The position numbers and the translations under genes are program-made. A DNA stretch of 54,035 nucleotides, counting the filler, from Streblomastix strix (Eukaryota): the NCBI GenBank assembly GCA_008636045.1. It is 3 parts of 3 records of this genome, joined end to end, with 100 filler letters (N's around TTAATTAATTAA, not from the genome) between each part and the next. Parts side by side here need not be neighbours in the genome. Positions count along the whole stretch, not along the records: positions 1 to 17,952 come from SNRW01000655.1; positions 18,053 to 35,996 come from SNRW01000656.1; positions 36,097 to 54,035 come from SNRW01000657.1. The stretch is one strand, 5' to 3'. Of this stretch, positions 1,214 to 53,759 are shown one piece after another. The notes beneath the pieces are model-generated. The model saw nothing but the letters and a program-made list of their open reading frames with translations, was not told where the DNA came from and searched no databases. Each line of letters opens with the position of its first letter. Position 1 is the stretch's first letter.

Positions 1214-3100
<1,887 letters not shown>

Positions 3101-4704: not shown

Positions 4705-7700
4705 TCAACACATTCTTGATTTGCATGCTGAAATAATATCTTGGAACAAACCATCCCATGACTACTCTCCAATTCTGATATCTTCAAGTGCATCAATAAG
4801 TTTATAAATATATCCAGTAAATTTGTAAAATGTAATATTATTTTATTTATATTAATTTATTCTGATAATTTGATTTTATTTATCACATTTTGTTATTGAA
4901 TCTAACGAATTTGTTATATCTTGAAGCATAGTTTATTCAGAATTTTTCTTATCATTGTTTTTTAGTAAGAATTTTCGAATTAAACACTTATAAATGATAT
5001 TTCCAATTGAAATATTAGGAGGAAAATAGATGGAGCGATTAATAGATATATTATAAGCAATAGATTTAAAAATATATTTAAATAAAGAAGAAGTTTATTA
5101 ATTGAATTACAATATTTAATTTTTGGAATATTTTTCATCTCCAATTTCCTTTTATAAAAATATTTTATTATATGAACTTTGTTGTGAAGAATCTAATGAT
5201 GAAACAGATTAATTATCAGATGAAAATGACTCAGTAATTGCTTATTTTACAGGATGACTTTAAATCTATTTTTTTTGATTATAAGAAGGATTAAACTCAG
5301 ATGACCTGATTTTAATTAAATTCTATTTAATTTATTTTTTTTCTTTCTTAATTGATAAAATTTCACTGATTGTTATCCATTCATTTTAATTATCTAAATA
5401 TTTCTTTCTTTTATTATTTATTTTTTCAGTATTGATATTATTAAGATCATCTTAACTTATATTTATACCATATAACCCATTATTATCATCATTTCTATAT
5501 TAATTATGATATTTATTGTCAATATATTTATGATATTATTTATTGTGTAATTTATTCCATCTTATTTAATCTTTATCATTATTAAATATTTTCCCCCAAA
5601 TTATTTCACTCATAAGTTTCATTGTCCAATCAAATTAAGATCGAATTTTACATGAGTTAATTTATTATTTTGAATTAGATGTTATTTTTAACAATGGGCG
5701 AAGATGAGAATAACATTGTGGTAATTAATAAGATTAATTTTGTGAAAATTGCTCATACTTTTATTACTAAATATAATTAGATTAATATGAAAGAAAAAAT
5801 TATAGAGGATCTTAAGTAAATTCTTTATAAATCTAACCAAATGAATTATCAACAAAGAAGTTAGGATAATTTTAAGATCTACATAAAGATGAATTAGAAA
5901 AATGAATATTTAATTCATTTTGTTTCTGTTCAGAATTATTTTCCTAATTATTGAGATCCATATTCAAATTATTTATATATGAATTGCAGTTAATATTTTA
6001 TTATTTCATTTCATCAATCTTTAACCTTCGTTTTAAATTCAAATATTTTTCTTTCATTTGATAAATTTCTTTCTTTTTCCATATCTTTTCTTCTTAACAT
6101 GATATTACATTTTTATATAGATTAATATATTTTTATTATTACTCTATGTTTTATCTATATTTAGTAGATTATTAGTTTATACATTTTAATATATTATTAT
6201 TTTTTTCATCTAAATCAAATTATTTTTGATTATTGAGATTAATAATATCAAAATGGTGTGGAATAAAAAATTGATGAATATCATCTATCAGTTTTCTATT
6301 ATGTTCAAATGAACGATTATTCTTAGTAAATTGTTAATCTTTATCAGTTTTCTCATTATTACATTAAGTTATATATTAATTATACTTTTATTATAACTGT
6401 TCAAAATTTTAATTTGAAGAAAATTATATTGGTTTATTTATTTATTTATTAATAAATTAAGGAGATTAATCATTTTAATATAATGAAGGAGGAGTTTGTG
6501 AATATGACAAATGAGTTGAGTGAAATTTTAATAAATCATTATTATTACTAATAGGTGGAAAATTATTAAGATTATCATAAGAGGGTTAAAGTTTATCAGA
6601 TGAGGAAGAAAAAAATGAGGGCGATGAAAGTTTATAAGTTTCAAGTTTATATTATGGTTATGTTGATGTTATTTTTTTATTTAATTTCTATTATTTATTT
6701 TATTGATGAATTGAGTTTTCAAATTATAAAGCAGAAATAGCATCTATGATTTATTAATTAGGCATTTCGGAATGAGATTACTGTTATCTAGGAATTGAAA
6801 TATTGGCTAAGTGAAAGGGGTTTGAGAATGATTATTCCTAAAAATGATGATTATGTGATATAAAAGATTGAGATGAAGAAGAAGATGAAGACAAATTTAT
6901 TTTGCTGCTTTAAGAAGAATCAGATGATTCTGGTTATTCTTATTATTATTATTCTTCTTATTTTTATAGCTCTTATTATTCTTATTATTATTAAATAATA
7001 TTTTCATTTATTTATACTAATGGTTCAAAATAAAATAAAGATGAGTAGAATGTTGGTTTTTAAACTCTCAATAATTTATTGTGAAAGAAAAAATCCTATG
7101 TTTTTGATGAATCTTAAAGATTTAATAATTGATATGAATGTGATTATGAAAAATTTCGTTGGTGGTTAAATGAAAGTTATTGTTATTTCTACTAATGATT
7201 TTATCCCAATAAAATAGATGAAGTAGGAAATTTAGATTGATATTACAATTATTATTGGTTGTCATTAAATGTTGGCAATTTAGTATTATTCAATTTCAAG
7301 TTTTCTTCATATAACTGTTATTACTATAAATATTTTTAATATTTTTATTTTAATAATTCTTTTTAATATTTTTATTTGATTATTTATTAATTTTCATTAT
7401 CATTTAATGTTGTGAATATGTTTTTCTTTATCTCGCTTTCTTTCTATTTTTAATTTTCATTCTGCTTTTCTTTCTCGACTCTTTAAGAGTTATTAAACAT
7501 ATTTATGTCTAATGTGAGATATTACTATTATTATTAAGGCAATGGAAGAGTTTATGAAGAAGAAAAATTTTATTCAGGAGGAAGTGATATTTACTTTATT
7601 TATTTTTGTGGCTATTATTTCAAATTATATTGTTAAAGAAATTTCTATTATTTTTATTTTAAATTAGAATAAAGTGTATTATTATTTGATGAATGAGTTT

Positions 7701-10700
7701 ATTTCATAATTTATTAATATTACAAAGAAAAGTGTAGAGATTAAGAAAATAAATCTTATTCCTTTGATGAGTACTGATATTATTATAATAAATTTGAATA
7801 TTACATTTAATTATTTATAATTTATTCTTTTGAAATGTTCTAAGTTTTTAATTTTTATTTTTATTATTATTATTCTTTCTTTGGTAAAATTCTAATTTTT
7901 TATTTATTTATTCTAGAATCTTAATTTTAATTTTGTAGCGTAATTTAATTTTTCAATTATTAGCATGAGTATTATACTGCAAAAACAGCTTAAATAAACA
8001 TTTATTTTCTGTTATTATCAAAACTATTTATTTTAATTAAACTATTATTTTTCTTCTTTATATTATTTGAAATTAGTAAGTTCATTAAATGATTTGAATT
8101 ATTTCCAAAGTTTTTTTTAATTTTATTATTATTCAAAATTGGTTTAGTTATCGTTGGGAGTATGTTTGGATCATTCAAAATTATTTCATTTAATTTAATT
8201 TCATTTTACTTTATTATTTTAAAGTTTTAAATGTAAGAAGGAATAAAATTTTCGGTTTAATATAAGGAATTTATTATTTGATGGTTAAGGGATCCATTAT
8301 TATTTAATAACTATTGAATTCATAAAGAATTAAAAATAAGTTATGGAGTCAGGAGAATTTTCCTATAAAACTGTTCATCTTCAGATTTATATGTAGGAAA
8401 TATATTATATTCATTATTTTACTACTAATACTTAATTTTACTATTTGATTTACTTTAAAATTCATTTGAAGCCTAAGAAGCAGCAATTTCTTTAATATCT
8501 TGAGTTGAAGTGTAAAATGAGTTATTATGTGTTATATAAAAACTTCTTAGTTCTCTTGTTTATTTAATTGAAGATTATTATTACTTTAAAGATGATTAAT
8601 TTAGAAATAGAGAAAGAAGTTATTATGAAGAAAATAGATATGAGGAAAATAAAGATATAATGATTAATAAAAGATGGTGAGAAATAGAATTATTGTTATT
8701 TTTAAAGAAATTATTAAGGATTTCATTTGCATTAATATCTTAAGCATTAATAAAATCTGTATTGTCTAATTATTCTTCACGTTACCTCGGATTCAATTAT
8801 TCTTATTATATATTTTATTTTTATTTTCTGTTTAATTCAATAAATTATTGTAAAGGAGAATAATAATTATTAATAGTAGTAGAAATTCCTTTAAGTTCGG
8901 GGTTATTTTCATCAATTTTATTTAGTAATTGTTATCTTTAATTTAAAAATTAATTTGATTTTTATTAATGTTTACGAATTTATTATTATATTATATATTA
9001 TATATTATTATACTTTTCTCTATTTCTCATTTTAATTCTATTTTATAATCTATCTTTTTATTTTTCTTCTTATCCTTTAATAAATTTTTCAATTTCTTTC
9101 TCAGAAAATTTTCCTAATTTAATGAACATTCTGTTTCCTTGAAATTTATTTAATTCAAATTACTATCCAAACCATCTTATTATATAAGAATTTTTTGTTC
9201 TTAATGAATAATATTATTAATTATGTTATAATTAGTCAATATTAATATTAATATTGTTGCTATTAATGTTGTTATGGTTGATATTAAAGTTGCTTTACAA
9301 TGGATCTATTTTCACATAAGGTAACTATATAGATGATATAGTTTTATCCCCAAAAATATTATTATTCATAAATAAAGAGAATGAATTATTTTCTTCCAAA
9401 TTGTTAATATCAAATTAATTATAATTCTTTTTCTACTATTAAACATAATTTTTATTATCTTCAAAATAGCTATTTTAATTATTTTCTATTTTTTTTATTT
9501 ACTATTATGATGTGAAGAATGGGAATTTATCAACTAATTAATATTATTATTATTAATCTCTTATGTTTAAGTATTATTCACTAATCTAAGATTGTTATGA
9601 AAGAGTATATTAATTATTTTGTTATTATTCCTAGTTTTCATTAAATTCTATTTTATCAGTTTCTATTATCAATGAAGGAATATGTTTTTATACAAATTAT
9701 CTATAAGAAGAAAGCCAATATGGTAAAATGTTAGAATTACATTTGCATTAGCACTAACAAATATAAGGAAACGAAGAATAATTCGATGAAAATTCTTATT
9801 ATTTACTTTTTTTTATTTTGATTTATTTATTCATTATTTTACAAATAAATAATTTAATAGAAGGTAATGAATTATGCAATGAAATATCATTTTCTATATC
9901 CCATAAAGATTTATATGATAATGGAATTTATGATAGTGATTGTTTACCATTATGATTATTAACTGATTAAAAATTATCAATTTCTTTCTAATCTGTATAA
10001 TCATAAAAAAATTCTTTATCCAATCCTGATAATAATTCATTTTTCTGAAAGCAAAATAATATTCTTTATTCATTTGAATTATTTTATTAAACATTTAATT
10101 GATTTCATTATTAAATTGAAAATATTTATTATAATTATTATGATTTTTAAGCGGAAGTAGAAAACGAAACTAAAGAATTGGATTAAGTAAATGAATTTGA
10201 ATTATTTATTAGTTAATTTTCAATATTAATATTCTCAATCTCATTTTTTCCTCCAATCTCTTATTCCTAATTATTTTATTAATCTGCTTTTTCTTCAATT
10301 TTCAAGTATAGTTTTTTATTCTCATTTGTTAGTTCTTTTTCATTTACTTAATTAGCTATATTCATTTAACTTTATTTTTCATTGTTTTCATTATAAATCT
10401 CATTTACCCTATTTTCATTTATATTAATCAATATTTATTCATCATAAATATTAATATTATCAAGTTCATTAGCTCTAGCAACTTATTGGGCTATACTTGC
10501 TGCAAGTGTTGATCATAAAGCTGATTAATTGAGCTATTGAAATATTTAATATTTTTCAAAAATTTCTTTTTCATCTTTGTTTTATTTTTTAAATAATTTA
10601 TTTATCCAATTACCTTTCATTTTATCATTTAATTCTCTATTATCCTAAATTAACTTAGAAATATTTATTTAGTCTTTATATTCTGATAAAATTTTATTTG

Positions 10701-13577
10701 CCAATTAGGACTCCTTGTCTAATTGCAACGCTAATTCTCTCTATCTAACAATTAGTTCTTAAGAAATTCGTGAATGGCTAAGAGGATAATAACCTAAATA
10801 AAAGTTTATCGCTTATTATTTATAATTATTTTGAAAATTGTTAGAAATAAATCTTTTTATATTAGAAACTGTATTACTTTAGGATATAATTCCTTAATTT
10901 ATGTTTTATTAGCTCTTCAATTGTTCATATTACTTGAATTTCTCTTAATCTTGTATGTTAATATTTCCATTAATTGCAATTTCTTATTACTAATTTACCA
11001 TATTCTAAACTCTATCAGCTGTAAATAGAGCATCTTTGTCTAGAGTATCAACTTTCTTTATCATTGCACTTCCTCCATAAAATTATGATAATTAATCTCC
11101 CAATTAATTATGCAATTAATAAATTGTAGAAATAAGAATAGCTGCGGCTTCATAAGTAAGTTCGATTTGTTATAAATTTAATATTTTTTGTAAAGCAACA
11201 GCAAAAATGCAGATTTATGCACAGTGGGTACGATCTATAGAATCTAAGCAGTTTATTCTCGTAACTCCATTCTGCAAATTAAATATACAAAGACCATCAC
11301 CAATATATATTTTATTTCTTTTGTATTATGATGAGATAAATGGATTAATGAAGTTCTTCTATTTCTTTTGGTTCTAATTTATCTCATATTATTATTAATT
11401 GATTTCAATATATTTTTCAGCATAAAATACATTATGAACAGATACTGAGGCTGAAGCAATTTGGATTAATCTTTAATTAACATTCAAGATTGAATTTGTT
11501 TAACACCTTGAATAGTCAAAAGGAATATAAATGATTTTATATTATTAAGGAAGAATTCTATTAATTGTTGAAATTGCATCAACAAATAATGAATGAAGAG
11601 GAGTTTCTCTTGGTTTTTTTTCATCCAGTTTTAGAAGAGATAATACTACAGTTGGATATCCATATCTGGTCTATAAATCAGCAAAATGGGCAGTGCTTGA
11701 ATCAAATAATGGGTCATGCTTTGGATAATATATTTCAGGCTTAATAATTTGTTCTGTTTTCTATGACCAATATACTGGAACTGTCCCACGACATTATACA
11801 TAAGATCCAATTTTCTATGATGCAAAGCCATCTTCAATAACAATCAGCTCTGTTTCAACATCATTTGCTACCCAACCTCTCTCAGATACGCCCCTCTTCT
11901 AAAATCTTGTTCCAGAATAATGTCTCGATCTTCTTGCAATAATTGTTATCGTGAATTATCTCCCATATAAATAGAATTTTCGTTGAACAAATGAGCCTGA
12001 AATTGCAATGACACAAAAATCAAATAAAGTTTTTTAAATTCCTTTCGCATGTTACAGTAAGTGGCCATTCCATAGAAATATCTCTCTAGTATTTTTTAAT
12101 GAGGGAATTGAACTTATGAAAAATTGTGAGTCATTCTCAACTAAACCACGAGATAATCCATCTGAATTTGATGCGCTTATCATAGCAAGTAGTATTTATC
12201 TAAATTTCATAGCTTTCATTACCGATTTTTAGTACACAGTAAGATTCTATTTATTCTTATTATTTTTAATTTTATTATTATCTGTTTAATTCTTATTACT
12301 ATTAATTTTACATATATTTTATAATTCTTTATCTTTTCTTCTACAAATATCAAATTAAGATTTTAATTCATCTTCAATAGGGAAAGCAGGAATTCTTTAC
12401 TATAACTAGTCTTTATGAATTGTATTTTAATTTTGATATTAATTATAAATCATATTTTCATTTAATAAGGTATTTGTGTGAAGTTCATGAAACGAAGGAA
12501 AATTATTCGTTAGAGAGAATTATTATGATTATAATGAATATGGACCATTATTTTATTAATTTTCAATAATTTTATTATTAGAAGGAGAAATTCTTTATTG
12601 TTAATGTATTAATTTTGATGACTACATATTGCTTGATATAGAATTCGAATGTTTAATATTTGAATTTTAAATTGTAGAAGATGAAGAAAGTGATTCTTTA
12701 GGGTTTGTTAATTTCAACATAATATGTTTTCCTATAATTTTTGATTGGTAATCTGTATCTTTATTTATCTATTTATCATTATTTAAGTTAATATCTTTTT
12801 TATTATGGGCAAATGGGATATTTGTAAGTGAAGGAATAAGTTTTTTAAGTTTTTAACATTATGAAGAAGATCTATGTAGTTTTTATTTTAACTTATTAAC
12901 GTAATAACTATCTTTTTCTTGAGAATATTAGGCAGATAGACAAATGTATTATTAAACTGTTCTTGTTAAATCATAAGTAAAAGAGAAGAAGAAATCGCGA
13001 GTGAAAGGTATTTCATTGAAATATTTTCGGTATCTAAAAGTGACATAAAATACAATTAAAAGAAAATAAATAGAATTAATAAAAATAAGTAAGGAGTAAA
13101 TATAAAAATAAACCTTTCTTCTTCTTTTCTATGCTCTTATGTTATACCCATTGATTTTACGTAAGATTCTGTTGCCAGAGGAATTAAAGATATTTAGTCT
13201 ATTCCATAAATTTCATGTTCATAAACTAACCCTGCAAATCTCGGAACTTTGATGAATATAACGTAATATCCAATAATACCCTTAAAAAATCCAAGAATTG
13301 CACAAGCTTTTGTCAATATTTATAATGATCCATTCTCTTCATCAAATCCAATTTCAGTGTTTGACTGTTTTCTTCCAAGAATCTTATCAATCTCACTACT
13401 TGAATATATTCGTTAATCATCAAACAATTGCAATGTATTTGGAGGTTGTCGATCAATCTTCAGAATTCTATATACATAATTGGAATCAATTCCTTCATTC
13501 ATGAAAGTGGAATTATTTGAAATACGAGAAATGACAAAGATGCGAGACTCTGAACCATAAACTGTGAACTAATGCAT
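4705..13577 (-). CDS. FIG4: FIG4/SAC3-like SAC-domain phosphoinositide phosphatase with very long Q/N-rich insertions and C-terminal extension (about 2930 codons if three internal TGAs are read through)
   Basis: Exon 13577-13114, intron 13113-13034, exon 13033-4705 in one frame. Motifs YRILKIDR, DFFFSFTYDLTRTVQ, ARRSRHYSGTRFQKRG...VANDVETE, RGTVPVYWSQ, catalytic RINCLDSIDRT, GDQLSQFYGGS, KRFISNNF..KQQAINFYLG. Internal TGAs at 10513, 10105 and 8320 make the true C-terminus uncertain. Confidence 0.85.
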
Positions 13578-19569: not shown

Positions 19570-22500
19570 ATGGCAGGAAATAATTCTTCACCATGGTCAG
19601 GTCAAATTCTGTGGTAGCACCCGTATTACTCTCTATTTTAGAATATCAAAAATTCAAAAGCGCATAGTCGTATAGGATCTGTAAGCGAATATATGGTATT
19701 AATAATTTTGTTCTCTTTGAAAAATTAAAAATTTAATTTTTTTTAGGATAGAGAAATTTAGAAAATTTGCTATGGAATATCAGGCTCTATATCTTCAAAC
19801 AATTATATTAGGTTCCCAAAAAAGGGTTCAAAAGAAAGCATTGGTTTAACAGGGAAACTACTTTATATTCAAGTATATATTTCATACAACTTTCTATTTA
19901 TTTATTACTTTAATTTATTTTTAGTGTAAAATTCCTTCGCTTATTCCACAATCGTATGTCATTCACTTAGAAACAATTCATGGGTAAGGATTATCATACA
20001 GAATCTCTTTTGGTAATGTTTATTAATAAGTGAAAAACACTGGAAATTCTATTTAGCTCCCTTTATAATTATGAGGAAATACTTGGAGTATTATTTGCGC
20101 AAATTTATAGGTATGAATTTATATATTTATTAATACATCTATTTAAAATATTTTTTATTTAATTATTCTCTCTTATTAAGGAACTTTCACTTCACTTCAT
20201 GAATTTGAATTATATGGAGTTAAAATCTATTCAAATTTGTTCAACTCTTATAATTAGAGCTGTTTGGACATCGGACAATCAATATACAACAAAGGTAAAT
20301 AGATTTAATTATTTATTTATTATTATTATTATATTGTTTTATAATATAGACACTTCCTTCTGAATTTAAACTATTCTAAAGGATGGGACAATAATATGAT
20401 GATTGTTGTGATTGGATTCAATATCCAGATTATATTTTATATAATTAAATTAATATAACAAATAGTGAGCAAAAAAGAGGCCTTAATCAACTTTAAGTAA
20501 ACTAATCACCAGCAAGTTAAAGAATTCGGAGAAATATGTAACTAGGGAAAATTAATTAAATTGAAGGACGAGCATTCAATTAGTAATTTAATTCTCAAAT
20601 TTACTAGCATTAGTAGAATTTTACAGGATAATAGCAAGAATATCAGTAAAATCAATAAATAACATAATAGAGTAATAATAATTTACCTTTGAATATTTAT
20701 CCTCCTTCATAACAATATAATACTTCATTTGATGATTAGATATTGACTCAATCTCAAAACTCTTCACAATTAATGATTTCTTCATCCCAATCTACTCAGG
20801 ATATGATAAATGAATTTCAAAATAAGATATTGGACAGATTGGCGCTCTTAGAAGCAGAAAAGCTTATTGAAAAATAATAATAGACTTATAAGTAATAATA
20901 AGAGTTATTTTCCTAAGGGTTATAACAATAAGATAATAAATAGTTTTTTGATTAGGAAATAAATAAAATTAAACTTCCTTTTGAAAATTAAATTAATATT
21001 GAAGATGAAATGAATTAAAAAGTAAAAATAGAAGAATAATTTTAAATGGACAAAAATAAATAATAAATTATTGATGATGCAATAATTCAAAATTAATCAA
21101 AAGATTCTATGATATCATAGGAATATTAATAAGAATATTCATAGATTCAAAAATAATTTTATTAACAATAATAAAATTCCTAAAATGATGAATTTTAATC
21201 TGAAATTGAATAAATAATGCAATTTCAGGATGATTTACTATCAAAATAATAATTATAATAACATAAAAATAAACTAATTAGAACTTCAAACAATAATTAA
21301 GGATAGAAAATCAATAATGCTATCGTATAACGTCCTTCTAGTGCTCTTATAAATGTAAGAAACTAACAAAATTCTGCGAATTAACATCAAATACGTCCTT
21401 AAACATCTCGAGCTGTTTCTAATATCTAATAGAATCGTTTATTGTCTTAATCTTAATAAAACCAACATTAATAATAAAAATAACTGCACTCACCTTCTCC
21501 TTCTATATTACCTGCTCTTAATAAAATAAGAGACAAAATGAAGGATGCTTAAAATAAGAAGAAGAAGAAGAAGCGAAAAAAGAAGATAATAATCGAAGAA
21601 TAAAAAATGATTAGAAATGAAAATGATAAATAAGCAGAAAATATTGACAATAATAATTAACTTTCCAATAATTTGTAATTTGATGAATTTTAAAATGATG
21701 TTTTAATAGACAGCTAATTGATTGCCAAAAGAAATGAATATAAAAGTGAATAGAAAATAAAAGAATAGTCTTTGAAAGGACCAATAATATATCCTCTGAA
21801 TGAACAATACAATAACAATAAATCATAAAAATATCATCAAGCATTTCTTAAGTTGGAAACACTTATTGGATACACACCACTTCCTTATTCTATTAAATAT
21901 GGATATTAACATTCTTAATAATCATTATCTTCCTTATCATCTTCAAATATCTCCCAATTAGCACATTCATAATCACTGATTTGGATGTATAATAATTCAA
22001 TTGTATATCCTTCATCTAATTTCATAATTATTCTTTCTCCATAGACTGGTGCATAATTTATTTTATTTGGCCATTAAAATCCAATAATTTCTTTAAGTTT
22101 TGCATCTGGAGCTGCACTTCTTGTATCTGCACAATCAACTGCAAAAGTACCAGATATTATATTCAGAAAGTAAATGACTGATGAAAATGATTAATTTAAC
22201 ATTTCTGATAAAGATAATTAAGAAACGATCGAAGACATATCCTGTATTTCATCTTAATCAGCATCTGTATTTGCAACTGATTCATCTTAATCATCAAATA
22301 ATTGTTAACTTCCATAGATAAAGGATACAATTATTGGATCTGCAACTCAATAACCTTCTGCTTTTATCCCATTTCCATATCCATAACTCATTTCATAACA
22401 ATAAAAAAAATAATTAATTAATAAGAAAATATTGAATAATGAATTATTGAATGAAAATGAATATCCTTTCACATAAACTCCAAACCAATCAGTTAATTCT

Positions 22501-32900: not shown

Positions 32901-32996
<96 letters not shown>

Positions 32997-36096: not shown

Positions 36097-36831
36097 ATCA
36101 ATAGATAATAATCATTACTCATTCAAACTGAATAAGAAACAGTCAATCAAATTAATTATTCAACCCCAACTGTTCATCATCCCACACTCTTAACAGCTCC
36201 TACAAACACATTATATAACTAATATAATTTACAAAATGATGCATAAAATTAATAATAATCATAAATTAATTATATTTCATAGGATTCTTCTATAATACAT
36301 TCTTTCAATTCTTAATAACAATAAAAAATCTAATAAACTAAATAATAATCTATTTTACCTCCAATCCCCAAATATATTATTAAACTTAGCTCTAAATTAA
36401 GCAATGTTTATGATAAAGATCGTTTATAAACATCAAAATCCTTAAGTTTATCTTAAACTGTAAAACAAGAATAGTCTTCATTAAATAATTCATTTCAAAC
36501 TCAAAATTCTTCTTTAGTTAATTCTCAGTTAAATAATAAATAATAAGATAATAATTTTGATATTATTCATAGTTCTTCTTAATAACAATATTCAAATTCT
36601 AATAAATAATCATAAATATAATAATAGTTACTGTAAGAGACAAGTTCCTAGATTAGCTCTTATATTGAAAAAGATAAATATAATACAAATGATTCTCCAC
36701 TTCATCTGTCTGGTCTTAATTTATCAAATCCTAATGTTTAATAATCATATTAATAAAGATAGTTTCTGCTATAATAACAATAACTATAATATGAAAATTC
36801 TTTATTTTAGAATCAATAACAATTTCCTTTA
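36097..36831 (+). repeat. 735-bp direct repeat, copy 1 (copy 2 at 53025-53759)
   Basis: Offset 16,928 nt; about 13 substitutions counted by eye, no indels. Confidence 0.95.
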
Positions 36832-39800
36832 CTTATATATAATCGTCCTCCATATAGGCGCAAATTGTGTCTATTCATTGTATTTTTATATTAGAATGCA
36901 AATATAAATACTTAAGAATCTATCCAAGATTAGTAATAATATTATTCTTAATTACTTTCATCTTCAAAACGTAAATAAGATGATACAATTCCGCAATAAT
37001 TATAATTAGAGAATATATCTGTTGTAATGAAATAATTTCCTGAGAATAGAAATTAGTCATAAGTTTTGACATAATCATAATTAAAATAAGATTTTTTCTA
37101 GTCTGATATTTCTATTAATTAATAAAAGATATTGAAAATTCCATCAACTTAATTTTCTCCAAGATCAAGCTCTAACTCTTAATAATCAAATATAAGAAGT
37201 TAATCCCCAACTTTAAATTAACATTCAATTAGCATAACACTTCCATAGCAATTATCTTCTCATTAAAAATAGAAATAAATTCGTAAATCTCTGAAAATGA
37301 TGTAAAATCAAACCAATACAAGGAAAAATTTATACACATATTTCTTAAGATGGTATTTCTATTCACTCAACAAAGCATAATAAAAGGAAAAAATCAGCCG
37401 CATTGTGAAACATCACTGCATAATGATCCTTCGTCGAGCATTCTCTATTATCGAATCAATTACAGAGATCAAACGAACAGAAAAGGCCTTAGTCACACAT
37501 ATTGAAACAAACAGAAGACATAATTTAATTTTGAGATCATTCAATCAATTTAAGGACAATTGGAAGTAAGAAAAAGCTGGGCGTCAGTGGAATGGACAAG
37601 TTGGTTAAATTATATCATAAATTCAATTGTTATAAAGAATGAATATAATGCAAAATGTATTAATTAATGGATTTATGGCTTATAAGAATTAGAAAATAGA
37701 TCGAAGAGAATCAAATTAGAAAGCAAGATCTTGGAGAGAATAAGAGTCGCTCTTGCATTTTTATTTCAGAATATGGCAAGATAGATATATAAGACTATGT
37801 CATGAAAGAAGAGATCTAAGAGAAGATGCAATATATTGTAGAAAGGAGAGAATATATGGGAATGTATTTAATTGGTGGAGAAGATTGTCTAATTCAAAGA
37901 TTAGAAGAAGAGAATTACTCTTAGAAGGATATGAAACAATAGTTAAACTGCCACAAATGAATAAAGTATTCATTGCTTGGGCTGGATGGACATCTTAAAT
38001 AGTTGGTTTTAAGAAGATGCAAGCTCGTAGTGTTATAAGGAGATAACAAGAAGATAAAGAATATACTCAAGATTATTTAATTGATATATTTATTCAATGG
38101 AGAGATGTATTAGTCAGAAGAAAGAATTATATTAATAATAAAATTAAAGAAGGCGTTGGATTAAAATAGAAAATTAGAATTGAGAGAGACATTTTTAATG
38201 TATGGAAGGATTATTCTTAATACAAAAATGGATTGAAAAAAATTAAAAAATTGCATTGGGATATTAATCAGCAAAAAAGATCTACGAATATAATAAATGA
38301 TTTAATAAGAAAAGTTAAAGAAAATTCATATATAACAACAATAGATAAACCAGATGAAGTTCAGAATAGCAGAGATTCCAAATTAACACTTGAAGATTTG
38401 GGAGATTCAATAATCTCTAATCACAAATTTATTAAAGTAAGAAAAGTTAATGAGAAATAGAATTAATAAGAAACCAAGATTTCACTTCCAGAGATTCCTT
38501 AGTCAATTTTTGCAGTTAGTGTTGGATCAGGAAATGCATTAAATACTATTAATATATAAAGTACATTTCAATAATTTAATGATAATAAATGGATTTAGAG
38601 TTATGATGATGATTATAATAATAATAACATTCCTAAAGGAAATAATAGAAGGAAAGCGTATTAGATTCTTCATTCGTGGATATTAATATATTTTTCGGTT
38701 TTATTTTAAAGGAAGAGAGTTGAGCGTATTATTATGAATAACTGGAGAGAATATTCAATATTCAAGAAAGAAATTAAACTGAATATGTAATAATTTTAAA
38801 TATAAATGAGTTAGAGAAATAGATAGACAGTTGAAATGAATGTATTAAAGTAGTGGTAAGATCTTTATTTGAAATCAATATAAACTTAGCAAAAGGAATT
38901 TAATTTAAATTAGAAATATGAATAGAAACTATAATCTGATGTATTTTAAGAATGGTTCTAAATAACTAATAAGAGAAAACAATTGAAGAATAAACTAAGG
39001 TTGGCTCATAAGAATCCTCGGATTGGCACAATGCTATTAACTTAAAAAATAATAATTAATTGGAACTAATATATGAAGATGAAGAAGAATCTTAAATAGT
39101 TAAATAAGCAATTTATTCCTTAAAGAAATAAGTAGAGAATTTAAATCAACTTTATTGGATGGAGATAATAAACATCAAAAGTGTTGCAAAGGAAAAGAAA
39201 GAAGATGAAAGATGCTTTTCTTGCTTGGAATAAAATTATTATTCAAAGAAAGAAATCAAAAATGAAAAACATTGAATTAGAAATTCGTAGATAAGTAGTG
39301 ATATGTCGAATATTTATGAGAACATTGCGTGATAAATCAAAAAAGAATAAGAAATAGAAATCAGAAATTAAATAAATGAACGATAAAAGAAAAAGAAAAA
39401 TTCTTATTTTAGCATTTTTTTGCTGGAGGGAAATCTCATAGTTTCAAATTGCAATAAAGAAGAATTTGAATCAAATTAAGAAACAGCGCTCAATTGAAAG
39501 AGCAAAACCATAATTTAGGATTTGGCACAATCTCACATTTGATACTATAAGACATTAAGAAATACAATCAAAGAAGATAAAATTACTTGCAAAAGTTTTC
39601 AATCATTGGAAATATCACACAAGCAGAAAACATGATATGAAAATTTTATTTAGCAAATAACAAAATCCAAACATGAATGATTAAGAATAATAATCAGTAT
39701 CTCCATCTCCTGAAAGAGGACCAATTAATATAAATTAGATAAGATTGAGAATAGAAGAAAGAAATAAAAGAATGTAACAGTAATAGATTGATATTCAACC

Positions 39801-40671
39801 AAGAATAGTCCCTGGAAGTGGATCTAATTTTGTTCATATTAGACAGATGCGAATTATTACTCCATATTTTGACTAATGGAGGAAATTGACTCCGATTGTG
39901 ATACATTATAGACATTATATATTATTGACAGCATTTAAACATTGGAGAGACTACTTTCTAGGTATAATGAAAGAAAGAAAGAGATTAAGATTAGCTTGTG
40001 AATAAAGAAAGATGTAGATTCAATTCAGAAACTAAAAATCTATTTATAGATAGTGGATAATGATTACATGTGCATCAAATGTTTATTATGAGAGACTTTT
40101 AGAGATTGGATGGAATGGAATAGCTTTGTATCACGAATAGTGTCAGGCGAAGAGAAATAGACTCAAATCCATAACAAATATTCTATAAATTCGAATGAAC
40201 TTATATCGTCTAAAATTAGCATTTCAACGACTTATTCAAAACTAGCAATAGAAAAAGAGGGAAAAGATTATTTTAAAATGGGAATAATCTATAGAACGAT
40301 TTTAACGCATTACCGACACACGATAAAAAAGTAAATCATTTCGTTCTTGGCATGTTTATTATTCATAATAGAGGATATTCCGTTTAAAAGGAGATTAATA
40401 TCGAAGATAGAAATTACTTTAATTACACCTCAAAAAGTGGAGATCATTTGCTATTGAGAAGAGATAAAGAAAAAATAAATAAAATTTAGCTGATGCACAT
40501 TATAAGAGATATATGCTATATGTTGCTTTTCAAAGATTTCACGAACGAGCAAAGCAACAGAAGATTCTTTAAAAACGAATGCCTGTCCTAGAATAATAGC
40601 GAAAAAAAATTCGAATGAAACAATTATATCAAGCATGGAAAGAAAAATATGAAGATCATGATCAAAATTGA
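36097..40671 (+). CDS. SFI1: SFI1-like centrin-binding repeat protein, 3' part
   Basis: TGA-free frame of about 1525 codons with many basic helical repeats ending F/LxxW(K/R) (e.g. LLHFYFRIWQ, IYGNVFNWWR, ILILAFFCWR, ILLTAFKHWR, LLQLHLKKWR), the Sfi1 consensus; TGA at 40669-40671. Confidence 0.8.
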
Positions 40672-42320: not shown

Positions 42321-42638
42321 TACCACATCAGAATGTTATACGACACTAAATCGCAGTTTTATCGTTTGCAAAAATATTTTATAAATTTAGATTGTTATTC
42401 TGTATTACTTCTGTTCGTAGGCACTTTTCTCTCACAATCTGGTCCTTCTGTGTATGATTCATTCGTTTTTTAACTTCTCAATTATTATTTGTATTATAAT
42501 AGTGATTTATAGAGAGCTTACCACATGCTTCAGGAGTATAAAGCGCATGAAAGTAAACCAGAAATTGAAAAAACTGAAATTGAAAAAACCGAAATTGAAA
42601 AAGAAAAAGAAGCACCGAAGGCTGGCGATACAGAATGA
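42321..42638 (+). CDS. Small hypothetical spliced protein ending in EIEKT repeats (start uncertain)
   Basis: Last exon RAYHMLQEYKAHESKPEIEKTEIEKTEIEKEKEAPKAGDTE-TGA(42636-42638), preceded by a gtatg...tatag intron and short GC-richer segments. Confidence 0.4.
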
Positions 42639-42745
42639 CTAATTACAGTTAAAGCATGAGTGTATAAATAAACAATATAAATATCATTAAACAATAAAGG
42701 ATTGAAAATATTTCATTATATTATGACCCTCTTTATTAACTCATT

Positions 42746-45700
42746 TCAACAATTAATTGTAATGGTTTGGTTGCAGAAAGGGCATTCGGGCTTAAGCGAG
42801 ATTGATTGAAGTCTATGCAAACAATAAGCACAAAGGAGATGAGAATTCGTACAAATAGTTTCAGTTGCCTTATGTGTGAAGCAAATTTCACAAATTTGTA
42901 CCTAGTCAGAATTTTCTTAAATATTCTTCATCTATTTTCTATCAGAACCAATTCTATCAATAAAGCACTTGAAAGCAACAAGTACTCTATTCTCATATTC
43001 TATCTCATCTGTTATTTCACGGACTTGTAGTTCATTTGCACACGAATTTCTAATAGTCCACTACTATTTCGCCCATAAATACACTTTTCCCATTGTCTGT
43101 ATGTTTAATGATGAGTCTGAGCATATATGAATAAATTACTCTCCAAAATCTGTGCTTTCAATCTTTTCACTCAAAGTTCCTATTTGAAATGCTAAGTGGC
43201 TGATCAGTGAGATACAAGGTGAAATTAGCATTGGGATACTTTGCATCATTATTTGAGTCCATACTGCCTCTCTAACAGGTCGCTAAATGCCTGTCCGTTC
43301 CCCACAAAATGTGAATATTGCGCTTATTAGATCAAGAATGATTGGTAAATTAAGAATAGCTTTAGTTTTAACTGCTTATTAATCATTTAGGCCTAAAATA
43401 TACGGAGCTTTTCCTGCTATTCCTTCAATAATTCTTAATATAGCAGCAAGAGTTTCAACTAACTAATGCTGCTTCAGTTCAACATGTGACCATTCTATTG
43501 AATCGAATGCCTCATTCATTGTATTAATTCTTCCTTCAAGTGAAACGAGACTTGTTAATAGTCCATGTCCTTAATTTAATATATATTTTATAAGTCTCAT
43601 AGTTAATGGAGTTGGAATTTACTAATCTGTTTTAATATCATTTTCATTGATTGTTAGCTCAGATATAAATGCATTCCATATTTTATTTGGTGTGCGAATG
43701 CATTGTTCAGTTGAGTAATTCAGTGGTGTTGATAATAAAAGTGGTTTATAAATACGAGAAGAAGGGGAAGTACTTTATGATGACGATGCAAATACTGATG
43801 AAAGAATAAAAAGATTCCGAATTTCATCACATCTTCCTATGATTCTTCGAGATAATATCCTCAATTCATCTTAATTAAGATTTGGTTGTTAATTTGAATA
43901 TTTTTCTATTCCTTATTCGAATTATTAGTAAGAGTCAAATGAATGTGTTATTATCATTAATAATAAATCTTATAATATAGAATGTGCACTAGTACTACTC
44001 ACTTCTCCAGATTTATTCAATTCATAGGGACCTTTAGTAATTTAATCATATGGAACATCAATTAAATATGAATAGCATCTAACTGCAGATAATGAAGCTG
44101 TTCGTTAAAGAAGTTCTTAACTTTTTGAATCTTTATTTAATGTATGAGATTATAAAACACGTAATGTTGCGATTGTGGAAGCAACTTTTACATAGAATAC
44201 AGGAATATATTAAAAGTCTGGCATATTTGAACCTTAGTTATTTATATAATTATCAAACTGAAGCATATCCAAAGTTATTTCCCAAAGAGAATTAAGATCT
44301 TTATTTAATAAAACACCAGAAAATGGTGCATATTCATTAATCAAAGTACGAAATAGTTATTTTGCACCTCTGATTGATTATTCTGCTTCAAATTACAATT
44401 AATCTGCTGATAACATTGTTTCACTCTGTGTAATCAATTATAGGCATTATTAGTTTTGAGTTAAAGATGAAGTTTGTTGGTTTGTAGATGAAATGATTGA
44501 TTTTGAAGTGGATGCATTTTAGAGATATTCTGATTATTGTTAATTTATTTAATTTTCTAATTATTAATTCTTCAAAGATGATTTCTATAATTAGAGCAGA
44601 TCATCATTCATTTGTTTATTTATTTTCAAAGCAGTATAATTTTCTAACGATATAGCGCGTCCATTTAAATAAGCCGCATAAGACAATTGAATATTTCGAA
44701 TTGCAGGAGGAAGAGTAAGTGCAAATAAATAAATAGAGAAATCAGTCAGTAGAGACAAACTCCTTTCTGTAAGATGAAGATATTAATTTGGATACCATAA
44801 CTATTAAACCCAATGTTTCATTTATTTTTATTAATATTCTTCATTACTAGAAGAATATGCTGTAATTGATTAATCTGATGTACATTTATATTCTTGGGTA
44901 TATTGAGAAAGATTTTATTCATTTAACTCTTCATTTCTCTTGTTAATTATATTTTCTTATTAAGTTAATCCTTTTAATCGACCTAGAGTTGATTTTGTTA
45001 ATATATTTGGTACAAGAGAAAATGATGTTTGAGAAGATTTATCTATTACAAATTTGTATATATTATTTGATTCTATATTCAAATATTTCTAATTATTTTC
45101 ATTGAATTTATTTCCTCTTCGAATGGACCTCCACAGAGCAATTGATAATCCTAATGCTGCATTTGGACTAGGTTAGCGTAATAGGAGTTTGAGAAAGATT
45201 GATTTTATAATAATAAAATTGGGTAATGCATTTTATAGGATAATTGAAATGATTTTTGAATTAACAGTATGAAGTGTTTCTAAATAGAGCGAGCTTAGCG
45301 GAAGAAGATTAAATATAAACTGTTGCTTTGAAATATAACTTTATTTTTTATTATATTTCTCATTTATTTTATATTATTTCAGTATTATTTTACTCATTTG
45401 AGATTGAGGTGTTTAAATTTATATCCAATTTTCATCAGAATCGTTAAAAGTTTGTTTTATTCTGCTATTAACTTAATCTTTTAAATTCTAATTTTCAAAA
45501 AGAAATTGATTCTCTTTTAATTAATCATTAAATAAATCTAATTGTGGATAATTAAAATGATTAAGTGATGATTAATGAAGTATTTCCATTGTATTTAATG
45601 AGAATATTGTAGAAAGATAAGGATAAGAAATTGACTAATGTTAATTATTACTAATTTATTTATACTATATCTTAACATTATTTATATCTTCTTAAATACT

Positions 45701-48700
45701 TCTTTCTTTAATATCTTTCATTCTTATTTCATTTTCTTAATTTAATAACATCTACAATTCATTTTAGCTTAAAACATTCATTGTGTCATTTCTGCACACT
45801 TTTGGATTAAGTATTAATTGAGTTGATTAATTACCTAATACTTGTTTATATTAGAATAAAGATGCTAAATCAATGAGATCTTCCGTGGGTCAAGTGAGAT
45901 GATGAAATTATTACTATATCAGTTATTTGAATGAAAATTAATATTTTGAAGAAATATCATCAATAGATTTATTTGATTGATTTTATTCTTTATCAGCTTA
46001 TTAATCTTATTTAAATTCAGAGCCATCATTACCATCAGAATTTAATTAGTGTAATTCATTAATATAAGGAAATAATCTCTCAAGATCCGCTTAAGATCTT
46101 TTTGGCAAATCAAAGAATATATTTCTTAACATGAACAAACAATCTCCACAATATCCTTAAATATTCTCTGGACTTACATCAATTCCTTCTGTATCCTTCT
46201 CTTCTTCATATTCTTCTGTTTCTTCATTATCCCATTCTTATTCTTATTTTGATTCATCATTATCTTATATTTGCTTTTATTTTCTTATTAATTATTAATT
46301 CTATTAATCCTTTCTTTTCTCCATTTTAATCATTTTATTTAATATTCCAATTAAATATGTCTTCTTTCTGTACTTACATATACTACTTATATTTATCCCT
46401 CTAAATAAAAGATGTAATGTAAAATCTCCTTTATCAAAAAAATCATCATCATCATAATCTTCTTCTTCCTATTCAGATTCTTTTTCATTATTTATAATAT
46501 TAAAAGAATGCTCTTTCATTTAAGTAATATTTTCTTTTTATTATTCTTTACCTAATTTGATTTTTTGTTTCTTTATTATTCCAATTTAATTTTCATTCTT
46601 TTTCTTTTTCTTCATCTTCTTATTCATTAATAATTAATCCAGATTTTTCTTCTTCTCTTTTTGTTTCTATGTTTAATTCTTTTTCTTTTCTTTCACTTAT
46701 TCTTTTGTATCTTTTTCTAACTCTTCTTTTATTTATTTCATATCTTCAGTCATTCTCTGTTTTACATTTCTTATTATTCTCTCCTTTTTATCTTCTTCTT
46801 CTTATATTTAATTTAATCTTCATCTATCCAATAATTTAACTTAAACTGATATTAAAGGAAGAGCTTCTTATAGAAATGAAATAATTGCATATCTGGCAGT
46901 CAAAGGGTTGGCTAATACCCAACAAACGCCATTACAGGCTTAAAAACTTTTATTTGTCTAATTTTAAAATTAAACTTACATCTTTTACATATTTTCATAC
47001 TCATCTTCATTATTATTCAATTAATATTTGTTTATATATTCACTTTTGTTCTGATTAATATAACATGCCCCAAATGGTAGAATTGGATGATTGACCAAAG
47101 CAGAAATAAATACAAATGATAAGTTATTCATTGCAAGATAAAATTAAACATCCAAATCAGTTTCAGGGGCTTCAAACGAAATATCAATTTCGGAATCCGA
47201 ATCAAATCGGTTATCTATATTATTTTCTTAAATTTGTGTCAATTCCAACTATTTATCTTATTTATTTCTCTATTTATTTTTATTAAAAGATTGAGAATTT
47301 TATTTTGCATTTATTTATTTATGTTTCTTATGCAATTACTAATTAATATCAATTTATTATTCTTCATGGATTTCTTAATGTTCAAATTTGTTATATTCAA
47401 GTTCAAATTAACTCATCAAGTTCTATTCAATATCGTCTCCCATTATTATTTATATTAATTTAATAATTGCTTTTAATTCTCTTATTCTTTTTCTTTCTTA
47501 TTTCTTCTTGTCTCCTTCATTATATATTATATTGTCTTATTTATTAATATTTAAAATGTCTCTAATCCATTCAATATCATCATTTATTTATTATTTATTA
47601 AATGATTTGAATTTCTTATTCTTTTCTTATAATATTTCATTTTCATTATTAATATTATCTTTTTCATCGTCATTATCTTTCTAACTTTCTTCTTCTTCAT
47701 CATCATCTTACTATTATTATTATTTTAATTTTAATTTATTCATCTTTTTTCTCTCTAATTTTCTTTTCCTTTTCAATTTTTTCTTCTCAACATCAGTTAA
47801 TGCATTTCCCTTCTCATTCTGATCTTTCTCATTTTATTTATTTATCAATTCAATATTCTATTAATTGATTATTTACTCTTCTTATTCTTAATTCATATCT
47901 TACTCTTATTCAATCATTCTTTGAGTATTGTCAAACAAAGGAAGTAGAAGAGCAACTCTGAATATTAATTTATTAAGCTCAGATCTTATTAATTCTGATT
48001 CATTAATACTAGATGCGTTTTCTTAAATGTTTTCTAATGAAAGATCTTATTCATTTTCCATTTTTTCATTTAAATTATCTTTTTCAATTTGAAGAGATAA
48101 TGGTATTTATTATTAGAATTATTCATTATCTTTATTTTGAAGTGATTTATTTTAATTCAATTGATTAAATGATTATAATAACTAGAAAGGACTATACTAA
48201 GAATGTAGAAATGATGAAGGAGTAATAAATTATGAAATGAATTAAATAAAATTACACTTATTCATATCAAATTAATTATTTTCATCAATCTGAGATTATT
48301 ATTCCTATTAATTACCAATTTGATTATTAATTAGGATATCATCTAATAATTCTCTCTCTATAAATGATTAGGATAGATCTCCTCCAATCCAATTTAATAT
48401 ATAGTAATATGATAGAGACAAAGAATGTGAAGTGAAAGTATATAGTAAAAGACGAAGAAATTAATGAATGAGTGAATTACGATAGATTATAGTGGGACAT
48501 CTTGGGTATAGATGAGAAAGTTTCTATATGTTTTACGCTTAATCTTATTAATTGTTATTTAATTCGCGTTATTTATTAATTTAATCAAGAAGAGTCTCTT
48601 ATATGTATATATTAATTAATTGTTATGTAATTGGAAATAACTTATTTGAAGTATTAACAATTGATTAAGTTAAATCAAAAGCAGGAGAAACACAAGGCTA

Positions 48701-49394
48701 AAACCCTTCAACTGGATATCTGAATGGCACATCACTGTATAATAGAATTATGGAATGAAATCAATGAAAGATTGAAAAAAAGCAAACCCATAATTAACCA
48801 ACACTGCTCCTCCCTTTTCCATTGAAACATATGGAAAGAATGTTTCTAGAAATGGACTTAAGGGCAAATTATTGAACGGAGAGCCTAAACTTATTCCATT
48901 TCTGAAGAATCCAATGCAACCAGGTAAGCAATTAGATCTGAATGAATAGGATTACTCTTCATTTCCAGAATTCACATCATAAGGCTCAAGATCAATAGTC
49001 ACTCCAATAACATCTCCAATTATACATGGTTCTAGAGAAGTGAGATTACGATCTGTTGATCTGGCATCTCCTGTAAATACATTGAACTGAGCCAAGAATG
49101 GAACATTTTCTTTCTCAAATGATCTTTGCTTTCTGACATATCCAACTGAAACTCCACCAGTTGTGAGCAATGACACTTCAAAATAAAATCATCCTTCAAC
49201 TAAACCAAACGGACCAAAAAATGATTCCGTAATTATTCGAGATGCTGATCTAGAAGATTTTTTAACTATAAAACGAAGAAAATTATACTTATAAGTAATT
49301 AATATTTCAAACGAATAGAACAGATGTGGACAGCAAGATCACAAAATATACTCAAATTATCTTCTGTCTAAATTGAAGAATTTTGATGTGACAT
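42746..49394 (-). CDS. RNF123: RNF123/KPC1-like E3 ubiquitin ligase (N-terminal SPRY, C-terminal RING), about 2180 codons, with three in-frame TGAs
   Basis: SPRY: G*FYFEV, GDVIGVTIDL, IGFFRNGISLGSPFNNL, FFPYVSM, VNYGDVPFRYPVEGF. RING: CEICFTHKATETICTNSHLLCAYCLHRL...ECPFC, then TGA at 42746-42748. No frameshift across the 6-kb last exon. Internal TGAs at 49189, 46820 and 45890. Confidence 0.8.
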
Positions 49395-51440: not shown

Positions 51441-53759
51441 ATGAACATATAAACTGACGAATTTTCATTTTCTTTAGATTAGTCTGCCATCCTTAATCCA
51501 TTTTATGATCGGAATCAACTTGCATCTAATAATAAACGAGAAAATGTTATGAAAGTGGATAGAAAAATAGAAAAATCTCAAAAAAGTAAAGAGAAATATG
51601 AAGATATAGAAGAAAACATAAATTATTTTAAGTTAATAAAAGCTAGGCTCGGAGCACAAAAAGTTTTTCGTATCTTTACTTCTTGGAGGAATTATTCAGA
51701 AAAGAAACACAATCTAACTGATCTTCTACGAATCTCTGGCTATAAATTCGTGAAGAAAGAAAATGTAATAAATGAAATTCCAATGGATAGCACTTATATG
51801 AATGATGTAAATCCACATATAGAATATTTTATGCATTCTTGAGTTAAATTTATTATTGAAGTTTGGCACTAGGAGGCAATGCTTCGATAGATATTAAGAC
51901 CTTCTTTTGTTACAGTGAGACTTAAACATCGAATACTTCTCAAAAGATTATTTTTTAATTATTTAAAAGAGAATCTACAATCGCAAAGATATAAGAAAGA
52001 AATTATGAATAGAGCAAATAAATTTATATCGAATCAAGAAAAGAAACTTAAAATAAATACTTTTAAAACATGGAGATAAGAAATTATATTTAGAATTCGA
52101 GGATAAATAACAACTGAATTTTTGTAGAAAAAAATATATTAAAAGAAAATGTTTTATTTATGGAAGAAACATTCGGATAAAATAAAAATTCTCCATCAAT
52201 TATAAAAATAATTCATAATGAATAGAAACATATAAAAAGATAAAATCTATTCAAAAGAAGAAAAAGAAGAGAAAAAGAGAATTAAAAATCAAAAGAAGGA
52301 ATAAAATATTAAAAATTAAAAAGAAATGAAAATAGAAGACTTAGAAGAAGATTAGGAAGATGAATCATCAATTGATTCAGATGAAGATGAAGATAATAAA
52401 CTTTATTTTGATTAGAGAAAATCAAAGATTAAATCTTTTTCTCGTTCAGATAGTAACAATAGTGAAAGTAATAATTATTCATATTATCAAGGAATGAAAT
52501 AATATTAGAAAAAGTAAAAGAATAAATTTATAATTACAACTATTACAGAGAGAGAAGCATTGATAAAAGCTGTTTTAAGAAGATGGAATTAAATTGCTAT
52601 AAATTATAAACAAACATTAGAAATGGAAGATGAATTAATAGGAAAACGCAAAAATAAATAATAAATTGAAATATTTCGAGAATGGCATACACTAACTCTT
52701 GAGTAACAGATTATATCAGGAATGATTAGGAGGCATTATTTAATTGTATAATGAACTATTCTGAGATAATGGAAAATCATTGCTTCATAAGAAAGAGTTG
52801 AAAATGATGGATAGAAATTGTTTAATAAGAAACTACGTGAATAAGAAGAGAAATGGATAAGAGATTTACATTTATAAGAATTGGAAAAGAATGAAAAATA
52901 TCGTAAGAAAAGAAGAGAATAAGAAGATGATGAAGAAAAGTTAGAGGATAAGAAGAGAAAGAAGCGTTGGAAAATTATTTGGGAATGGTAAGATAAAGAT
53001 GCTAAAATTACTCCAGATACTCATATCAATAGATAATAATCATTACTCATTCAAACTGAATAAGAAACAGTCAATCAAATTAATTATTCAACCCCAACTG
53101 TTCATCATCCCACACTCTTAACAGCTCCTACAAACACATTATATAACTAATTTAATTTACAAAATGATATATAAAATTAATAATAATCATAAATTAATTA
53201 TATTTCATCGGATTCTTCTATAATACATTCTTTCAATTCTTAATAACAATAAAAAATCTAATAAACTAAATAATAATCTATTTTACCTCCAATCCCCAAA
53301 TATATTATTAAACTTAGCTCTAAGTTAAGCAATGTTTATGATAAAGATCGTTTATAAACATCAAAGTCCTTAAGTTTATCTTAAACTGTAAAACAAGAAT
53401 AATCTTCATTAAATAATTCATTTCAAACTCAAAATTCTTCTTTAATTAATTCTCAGTTAAATAATAAATAATAAGATAATAATTTTGATATTATTCATAG
53501 TTCTTCTTAATAACAATATTCAAATTCTAATCAATAATCATAAATATAATAATAGTTACTGTAAGAGACAAGTTCCTAGATTAGCTCTTATATTGAAAAA
53601 GAGAATAATAATACAAATGATTCTCCACTTCATCTGTCTGGTCTTAATTTATCAAATCCTAATGTTTAATAATCATATTAATAAAGATAGCTTCTGCTAT
53701 AATAACAATAACTATAATATGAAAATTCTTTATTTTAGAATCAATAACAATTTCCTTTA
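51441..53759 (+). CDS. SFI1: SFI1-like protein, 5' part (second copy or allele); two in-frame TGAs; broken by inversion at 53756
   Basis: ATG at 51441; Sfi1 repeats (VFRIFTSWR, KINTFKTWR, KKMFYLWK, IEIFREWH); runs in frame into the sequence that starts contig 3 at 36097; TGA at 51840 and 52752. May be a pseudogene. Confidence 0.7.
53025..53759 (+). repeat. 735-bp direct repeat, copy 2
   Basis: About 98% identical to 36097-36831. Confidence 0.95.

Follow-up and report, generated by a model that had tools for sequence, protein, structure and literature searches.

Probable rare, position-dependent sense use of UGA in long genes of the oxymonad Streblomastix strix

UGA ends genes in Streblomastix strix and also occurs, rarely and in frame, inside three of its long genes, where it probably serves as a position-dependent sense codon. 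The S. strix genetic code therefore likely has no dedicated stop codon. S. strix is a termite-gut flagellate belonging to the oxymonads, which are metamonads without mitochondria. The sequence analysed here (the window, 54,035 nt including filler) consists of three S. strix contigs joined via N-spacers. A first-pass annotation of the window had reported eight in-frame TGA codons, and all eight were confirmed by coordinate and frame, six on the minus strand (8320, 10105, 10513, 45890, 46820 and 49189) and two on the plus strand (51840 and 52752).

Glutamine is encoded by 1567 codons in six long exons (12,180 codons), including 1063 TAA and 198 TAG, and the published code of S. strix is TAR=Gln (table 6; PMC13002328, PMC1501061). 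The available portions of these two papers do not mention sense UGA in S. strix, and the former, in which codes were inferred from tubulins only, has no mention of UGA or TGA there. Our literature search found no report of position-dependent sense UGA in any metamonad. TGA is the terminator of all 10 genes that we located, as the first-pass annotation had held, a count that follows partly by construction under table 6. In the six long exons TGA occurs in frame seven times, compared with 12–179 times in each off-frame of the same strand; the eighth TGA, at 49189, sits in a separate exon outside this count. Internal TGA makes up 0.054% of codons (8 internal TGA vs 97 TGG), and all three canonical stops are found in frame in intact genes with collinear orthologues. 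No tRNA genes were detected within the window, two JGI metagenome scans recovered no relative, and none of 10 guessed open frames exactly matched a stored protein.

The first TGA-bearing gene encodes a FIG4/SAC-domain phosphoinositide phosphatase (4705..13577, minus strand) and has about 2,930 codons, one 5' intron and three internal TGAs. Pfam identified a SacI (Syja_N) domain, and the orthologues are single long proteins of 3796 aa in Monocercomonoides (M. exilis) and 2240 aa in Blattamonas (B. nauphoetae), with which the gene shares a WxIExD motif located downstream of two of the TGAs. The TGA at 10513..10515 (minus strand) is 5808 nt from the true stop and has no alignable homologous position, while those at 10105..10107 (minus strand, in a Q/N-rich stretch) and 8320..8322 (minus strand) are 5400 nt and 3615 nt from it. 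A by-eye match of arginine to two FIG4 TGAs was dropped after conflicting results from three MAFFT modes and its absence from ungapped scans.

The second gene (42746..49394, minus strand) has about 2,180 codons and three internal TGAs. Pfam finds SPRY and RING domains in it, in line with the intact RING noted earlier beyond the TGAs; its earlier name, RNF123, is a provisional label, and we refer to the gene as RNF123-like. It is collinear with a single 2820-aa M. exilis protein (MONOS_8554); a homologue search with the RING half gave no match, which is weak evidence given the length-limited query. The TGA at 49189..49191 (minus strand, about codon 53) lies in a SPRY strand with the pattern G-x-aromatic-Y-F-E-V, and is the one alignable site of the eight, facing arginine in M. 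exilis, lysine in P0003 and arginine in RyR1. The other two are at 46820..46822 and 45890..45892 (both minus strand), the latter 3144 nt from the stop.

The third gene is a repeat gene present as two pieces, which we take to be SFI1-like. The 5' half (51441..53755, plus strand) has two internal TGAs, and the 3' half (36097..40671, plus strand), from a second copy or allele, has no internal TGA and ends at a true TGA stop at 40669. The halves overlap by 740 nt (53025-53764 against the 36097..40671 piece) at 98.1% identity. The first-pass annotation had listed them separately, as an SFI1 5' copy and a TGA-free 3' part; they are halves of one TGA-bearing gene in two copies or alleles. The SFI1 name is provisional, Pfam having given no family for the pieces. 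A length-limited homologue search with the 5' half also gave no match (weak evidence). The contig ends in a 280-nt inverted piece of the same gene (53756..54035; 97.5% identical to 36806-37085 in reverse), likely an amplification chimera.

The TGAs might never meet a ribosome, being amplification or assembly errors, parts of short in-frame introns, or targets of RNA editing. The amplification-type inversion is in keeping with this explanation, as are the GT..AG pairs of 3n length that surround five of the eight sites and the GenBank model KAA6399912, which leaves out the SPRY strand holding 49189. However, the remaining three sites, including 10105 and 8320, have no candidate intron, and a gene model without 49189 would lack a strand of the SPRY domain that M. 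exilis and RyR1 both retain. RNA-like contigs, judged to be RNA because a GT..AG intron has been spliced out and a poly(A) end is present, come from runs X2 and X4, which belong to the same study as the probable source run X1. They cover two of the eight sites and keep the TGA at both, once by tally and once by inference. The TGA at 51840..51842 (plus strand) is kept in contig 26 of run X4 together with three other SNPs, and none of the 18 differences listed for X4, all of which were inspected, falls at 51840. The site at 46820 is crossed gap-free by contig 11 of run X2, which has 34 other differences; 11 of these 34 were displayed and used, and we infer from the tally and row order that the TGA is kept. 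Because these contigs carry other SNPs and still keep the TGA, amplification damage (an earlier suggestion), splicing and editing fail at 51840 and 46820; the explanation is refuted at the former site and probably at the latter, and we consider it highly improbable overall. Further contigs from X1 and X3 span 45890, where the X1 contig is likely the same as the window; six differences are listed for X3, the sole run from another study. At 52752..52754 (plus strand), the TGA site is covered by contig 7 of X1, whose alleles are those of the other SFI1 copy, suggesting that TGAs likely occur on both SFI1 haplotypes. RNA and read support covers sites in two of the three genes, the SPRY-RING and the SFI1-like gene.

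The main rival to sense UGA is gene death, in which the three genes would be young pseudogenes or dead copies, either dispensable or with an intact copy elsewhere, where nonsense mutations aided by CpG decay would have turned TAA, CGA or TGG into TGA and cut the products short. In agreement with this, the CpG observed/expected ratio is 0.58 and transitions in CpG context are enriched (9/35, P 0.005-0.036), and CpG deamination (CGA>TGA) may be the origin of some TGAs. SFI1 is also present in two copies or alleles, and its linker, taken by itself, evolves close to neutrality (10 non-synonymous against 3 synonymous changes). The TGAs are confined to three of about six long genes, and a WDR90-like control gene (19570..30906, plus strand; propellers by Pfam) has a long exon of 3,507 codons with no internal TGA. 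The first-pass annotation had taken this patchiness to favour inactivation or damage, but it is weak (heterogeneity among genes P 0.06-0.07), and the TGA-free SFI1 3' part that it had counted is the 3' half of a gene with TGAs. Several observations argue against gene death. Despite several stops per gene, no frameshift occurs, as had been noted earlier, although the coding sequence spans about 21.5 kb and includes 46 A/T runs of at least 6; within the SPRY-RING gene, each of the four listed indels has a length divisible by three. Between 2.6% and 3.1% of substitutions make TGA, such that eight neutral nonsense changes would correspond to ~260-310 substitutions. Polymorphism downstream of the TGAs (33 SNPs) comprises 15 synonymous and 18 non-synonymous changes, giving a pN/pS of 0.33 (P 0.002) unweighted and 0.54 (P 0.06) with transition weighting, a modest and uncertain sign of purifying selection. 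The stops are absent from the 3' 40% of the genes, they likely occur on both SFI1 haplotypes, and the TGA-containing RNA-like contigs are expressed. No sense-codon allele was found among two members of the SPRY cluster, although contigs drop rare variants and a minor intact allele could be missed. We therefore regard gene death as unlikely: a CpG origin is plausible, but inactivation fits the in-frame indels, lack of frameshifts and TGA-bearing RNA badly, and of the options originally raised sense UGA is the best supported.

All eight internal TGAs are more than 3.1 kb from the true stop, at a mean relative distance of 0.69 (P 0.035) and a minimum of 0.41 (P 0.015), both tests being post hoc. 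A small spliced gene on the plus strand has a terminal TGA and a 60-nt 3' UTR (together 42636..42698) followed by poly(A), with a loose end of 17 A behind 42698 in X2, and another RNA piece extends to 83 nt past its stop. If internal UGA is sense, a near-cognate or dedicated tRNA may outcompete eRF1 where the poly(A) tail is distant, with eRF1 prevailing near the tail, as proposed for Condylostoma; the FIG4, SPRY-RING and SFI1-like genes would then still yield full-length proteins. UGA would be inefficient and disfavoured, arising by single mutations from CGA, TAA or TGG and persisting mainly at tolerant sites of long genes.

A further alternative is that the code is unchanged, with termination dominant and sufficient complete protein supplied by a few percent of leaky readthrough, or by signals specific to a gene, for instance for selenocysteine insertion. 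As a codon, UGA is strongly avoided, and in yeast tryptophan, cysteine and arginine can be inserted at UGA, according to the available part of PMC4150775. Three stops in series at a few percent each would nevertheless leave almost no product, and no common motif follows the eight TGAs. Selenocysteine machinery is described for oxymonads in the portions available of PMC6759080 and PMC10703272. A selenoprotein UGA is not supported, as no site faces cysteine in a homologue and no Rfam element reached the gathering score within the window, although a divergent SECIS could escape such a search. UPF1 is present in S. strix (PMC1501061, in the part available), yet TGA-bearing RNA was assembled. We consider an unchanged code improbable.

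Ambiguous stop/sense codes occur in ciliates, Blastocrithidia and Amoebophrya, with UGA read as tryptophan in each. Assuming that internal UGA is sense in S. strix, this precedent makes tryptophan an even prospect, arginine is a less probable candidate suggested by the one alignable site, and a mixed or other assignment is less probable still. A conserved tryptophan, which marks internal UGA in table 27, was found at none of the eight sites, a small sample in which one site is alignable and with which tryptophan at tolerant sites is still compatible. The first-pass annotation had preferred arginine or glutamine over tryptophan; the site facing Arg/Lys agrees with arginine, but flanking composition does not separate tryptophan from arginine and mildly disfavours glutamine (P about 0.05-0.06). 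The SFI1 repeat register did not discriminate between tryptophan and arginine.

The closest likenesses, as far as the available portions of the sources extend, are the karyorelict/Parduczia code (table 27; bioRxiv 2022.04.12.488043) and that of Amoebophrya sp. ex Karlodinium veneficum, in which, as in S. strix, UAR is glutamine and UGA is both terminator and in frame; both belong to a different supergroup from S. strix. Amoebophrya prefers UGG over UGA and its sense UGA is biased to the 5' end (PMC6394959); its UGA aligns with tryptophan (72-83% between strains), whereas the alignable S. strix site faces Arg/Lys. The S. strix 3' UTR of 60 nt (one measured) is longer than the karyorelict medians of 31-43 nt. 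In Condylostoma magnum (table 28), the in-frame UGA rate is 0.042%, compared with 0.054% in S. strix, and stop codons become scarcer towards the true ends of genes (PMC4967479, available part). In contrast to S. strix, where UAA and UAG are glutamine, these codons also terminate in Condylostoma, its UTRs are 21-23 nt, and tryptophan was identified by mass spectrometry and ribosome profiling. UGA=Arg has been suggested for the Craticula vanensis mitogenome and is suspected for the plastids of Trentepohliales and the mitogenomes of Oikopleuridae (PMC13672107, available part); these organellar cases are frequent and described there without context dependence, unlike the nuclear, rare UGA of S. 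strix, which is still a stop.

If UGA is a sense codon in S. strix, an ambiguous code would have originated independently in a new supergroup. The available text of PMC4967479 raises, for Condylostoma, the borrowing of tRNA-Trp(UCA) from mitochondria; this origin would be excluded in an oxymonad, which has no mitochondria. The S. strix gene models built with table 6 (56,706 loci) would be split or trimmed at internal TGAs, as KAA6399912 appears to have been. If the residue is arginine, this would be a new nuclear code. A tentative and rather doubtful proposal is a nuclear code with UAA/UAG=Gln in which UGA is Arg within a gene and a stop at its end, CpG decay of CGA codons being the supply of internal UGAs. 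Such a code would be unprecedented both as a nuclear UGA=Arg code and as an ambiguous code among metamonads.

We found all eight internal TGA codons claimed by the first-pass annotation in place and in frame: three in the FIG4/SAC gene (4705..13577, - strand; 8320, 10105 and 10513), three in the SPRY-RING gene (42746..49394, - strand; 45890, 46820 and 49189) and two in the 5' half of an SFI1-like gene (51441..53755, + strand; 51840 and 52752). Our evidence base is the window (contigs 1-17952, 18053-35996 and 36097-54035, with N-spacers between), the contigs of four sequencing runs and three orthologues. TAR=Gln in Streblomastix strix appears in earlier publications (PMC13002328, PMC1501061). 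Under table 6 (TAA/TAG=Gln, UGA the sole stop), six long exons comprise 12,180 codons, including 7 TGA, 97 TGG, 1063 TAA, 198 TAG, 312 AGA and 48 CGA, and their same-strand off-frames contain 12 to 179 TGAs each; TGA 49189, the eighth site, is located in a separate SPRY exon outside these six. By-eye inspection found no additional in-frame TGA in exons of the window's smaller genes, and none was seen by eye in the intact, intron-rich genes for a 26S proteasome AAA subunit (about 1210-3100, +), presumably V-ATPase subunit F (about 3300-4000, -), IFT139/TTC21 (about 14185-17952, -) and Pho88 (about 41000-41840, +). The internal TGA rate is ~0.054% of ~14,700 codons (a partly estimated total), with heterogeneity between genes at P 0.06-0.07. 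All eight TGAs lie 3.1-6.4 kb before the true stop (post hoc P 0.035 for the mean and 0.015 for the minimum), the opposite of the pattern for tolerated truncations.

The SPRY-RING gene has SPRY and RING domains in Pfam, and we take it to be RNF123-like. It is collinear across all three TGAs with the 2820-aa M. exilis protein MONOS_8554, the match running from the SPRY domain (E 2e-29) through the RING end (E 3e-28). Searching with the SPRY region yielded seven hits, one of them in a cluster with KAA6399912.1. This GenBank model of the gene is 167 aa long and leaves out the SPRY strand holding TGA 49189. M. exilis and RyR1 both retain the strand, so the omission was likely forced by the stop. 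A WxIExD motif downstream of two FIG4 TGAs is common to both orthologues (E 0.008 and 0.001), the M. exilis protein of 3796 aa and the B. nauphoetae protein of 2240 aa, and the far C-terminus resembles them as judged by eye only. The repeat gene, presumably SFI1, received no Pfam family assignment for either piece. Its 5' piece and its 3' piece (36097..40671, +) overlap by 740 nt at 98.1% identity and belong to a single gene, each half coming from a different copy or allele. A segment of it is repeated at both contig ends (36097-37085 and 53025-54035, ~98% identity) and the end of the third contig has a 280-nt inversion; the repeated ends reflect either tandem duplication or the joining of two alleles by assembly, closing in an inverted chimera. 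A separate gene at 31-36 kb contains an internal 129-nt repeat (33219-33347 and 35869-35996, 90% identical).

Four runs (X1-X4) cover parts of the window, all as contigs, which drop rare variants; the comparison took in the five sites of the SPRY-RING and SFI1-like genes. X2 and X4 behave as RNA, since contigs of both have a 57-nt GT..AG intron spliced and X2 also has a poly(A) end. X4 contig 26 is gapless over 51660-52010 with no difference at 51840-42 (18/18 listed differences displayed, the tally by kind agreeing). X2 contig 11 is gapless over 46820 and has 34 differences, 11 displayed as a block from 46847, which indicates rows in position order, and we infer that TGA 46820 is unchanged. 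Contigs from X1, possibly the source of the window, span all five SPRY-RING and SFI1-like sites; in X1 contig 7, five of 10 differences are displayed; each of these agrees with the other SFI1 copy, and neither 51840 nor 52752 is among them. A contig from X3, a separate study, spans 45890, its differences undisplayed. That the TGAs are an artefact is very improbable.

The deepest RNA-like cover of the window (55-76) falls on a small gene at 50185-51074 (+), for which no Pfam family was found. Here X2 and X4 contigs splice 50490-50548 and have inserted and replaced letters near 50220-50349 relative to the window, so they may derive from a paralogue. At 51072-51086, two further in-frame TGAs stand at the third and fourth codons after a terminal TGA, resembling back-up stops. 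Intron donors at 48787 and 50490 read GTTTGC rather than the usual GTATG, with splicing of one confirmed by X2 and X4. At 42567, in a small gene's last exon, an X4 contig has a one-base insertion in an A run, absent from X2, which is either an error or a real frameshift allele.

TGA-creating changes make up ~2.6-3.1% of substitutions in the three genes, so eight neutral stops, as under gene decay, imply ~260-310 substitutions, alongside which neutral indel rates predict many frameshifts. None was seen in ~21.5 kb of coding sequence that includes 46 A/T runs at least six letters long, which bears out the claimed absence of frameshifts beside the TGAs. Of the seven indel rows listed, the four that fall within the SPRY-RING gene all have lengths divisible by three, although slippage of triplets would favour the same pattern. 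SNPs downstream of a TGA (15 synonymous, 18 non-synonymous) gave a pN/pS of 0.33 (P 0.002), which rises to 0.54 (P 0.06) once transitions are weighted; polymorphism in the SFI1 linker taken by itself is close to neutral. We consider gene decay unlikely.

CGA>TGA is a plausible source of the TGAs given the CpG o/e of 0.58 and the CpG context of 9/35 transitions (P 0.005-0.036), values that also hint at a CpG-directed mutator such as cytosine methylation. GpT/ApC is likewise low across the whole window (0.67). The modelled flux to TGA is 42-54% from TAA, 7-28% from CGA and 12-15% from TGG. The initial preference for Arg or Gln over Trp as the residue held at one site only. TGA 49189, the only robustly aligned site, faces Arg (M. 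exilis), Lys (P0003, a SPRY-domain homologue) and Arg (RyR1). Flanking composition weighs mildly against Gln and does not distinguish between Trp and Arg; consistent alignment to homologues was not obtained for the remaining seven. If UGA is inefficiently read and persists at tolerant sites only, the inserted amino acid may be missing from homologues, and Trp would thus be possible. Near-cognate UGA reading in yeast inserts Trp, Cys and Arg (PMC4150775); leaky or Sec readthrough is a very improbable account of the eight sites. UGA=Arg figures in the accessible text of PMC13672107 as a putative organellar code only.

No report of sense UGA in an oxymonad was found in titles and abstract openings, most subscription journals lying outside the search, and the accessible text of PMC5304391 enters oxymonads under UAR=Gln only. 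The Streblomastix strix case would operate in the manner of the ambiguous codes known from karyorelicts, Amoebophrya (PMC6394959) and Condylostoma. We nevertheless leave it outside table 27, the karyorelict code in which UGA is Trp or stop, since 49189, the one site that could be tested, does not face Trp. By analogy (PMC4967479, bioRxiv 2022.04.12.488043), UGA far from the poly(A) tail would most likely be read by a tRNA and UGA close to it would most likely be recognised by eRF1; one 3' UTR in the window measures 60 nt. The feature is real, and UGA probably serves as a position-dependent sense codon in Streblomastix strix.
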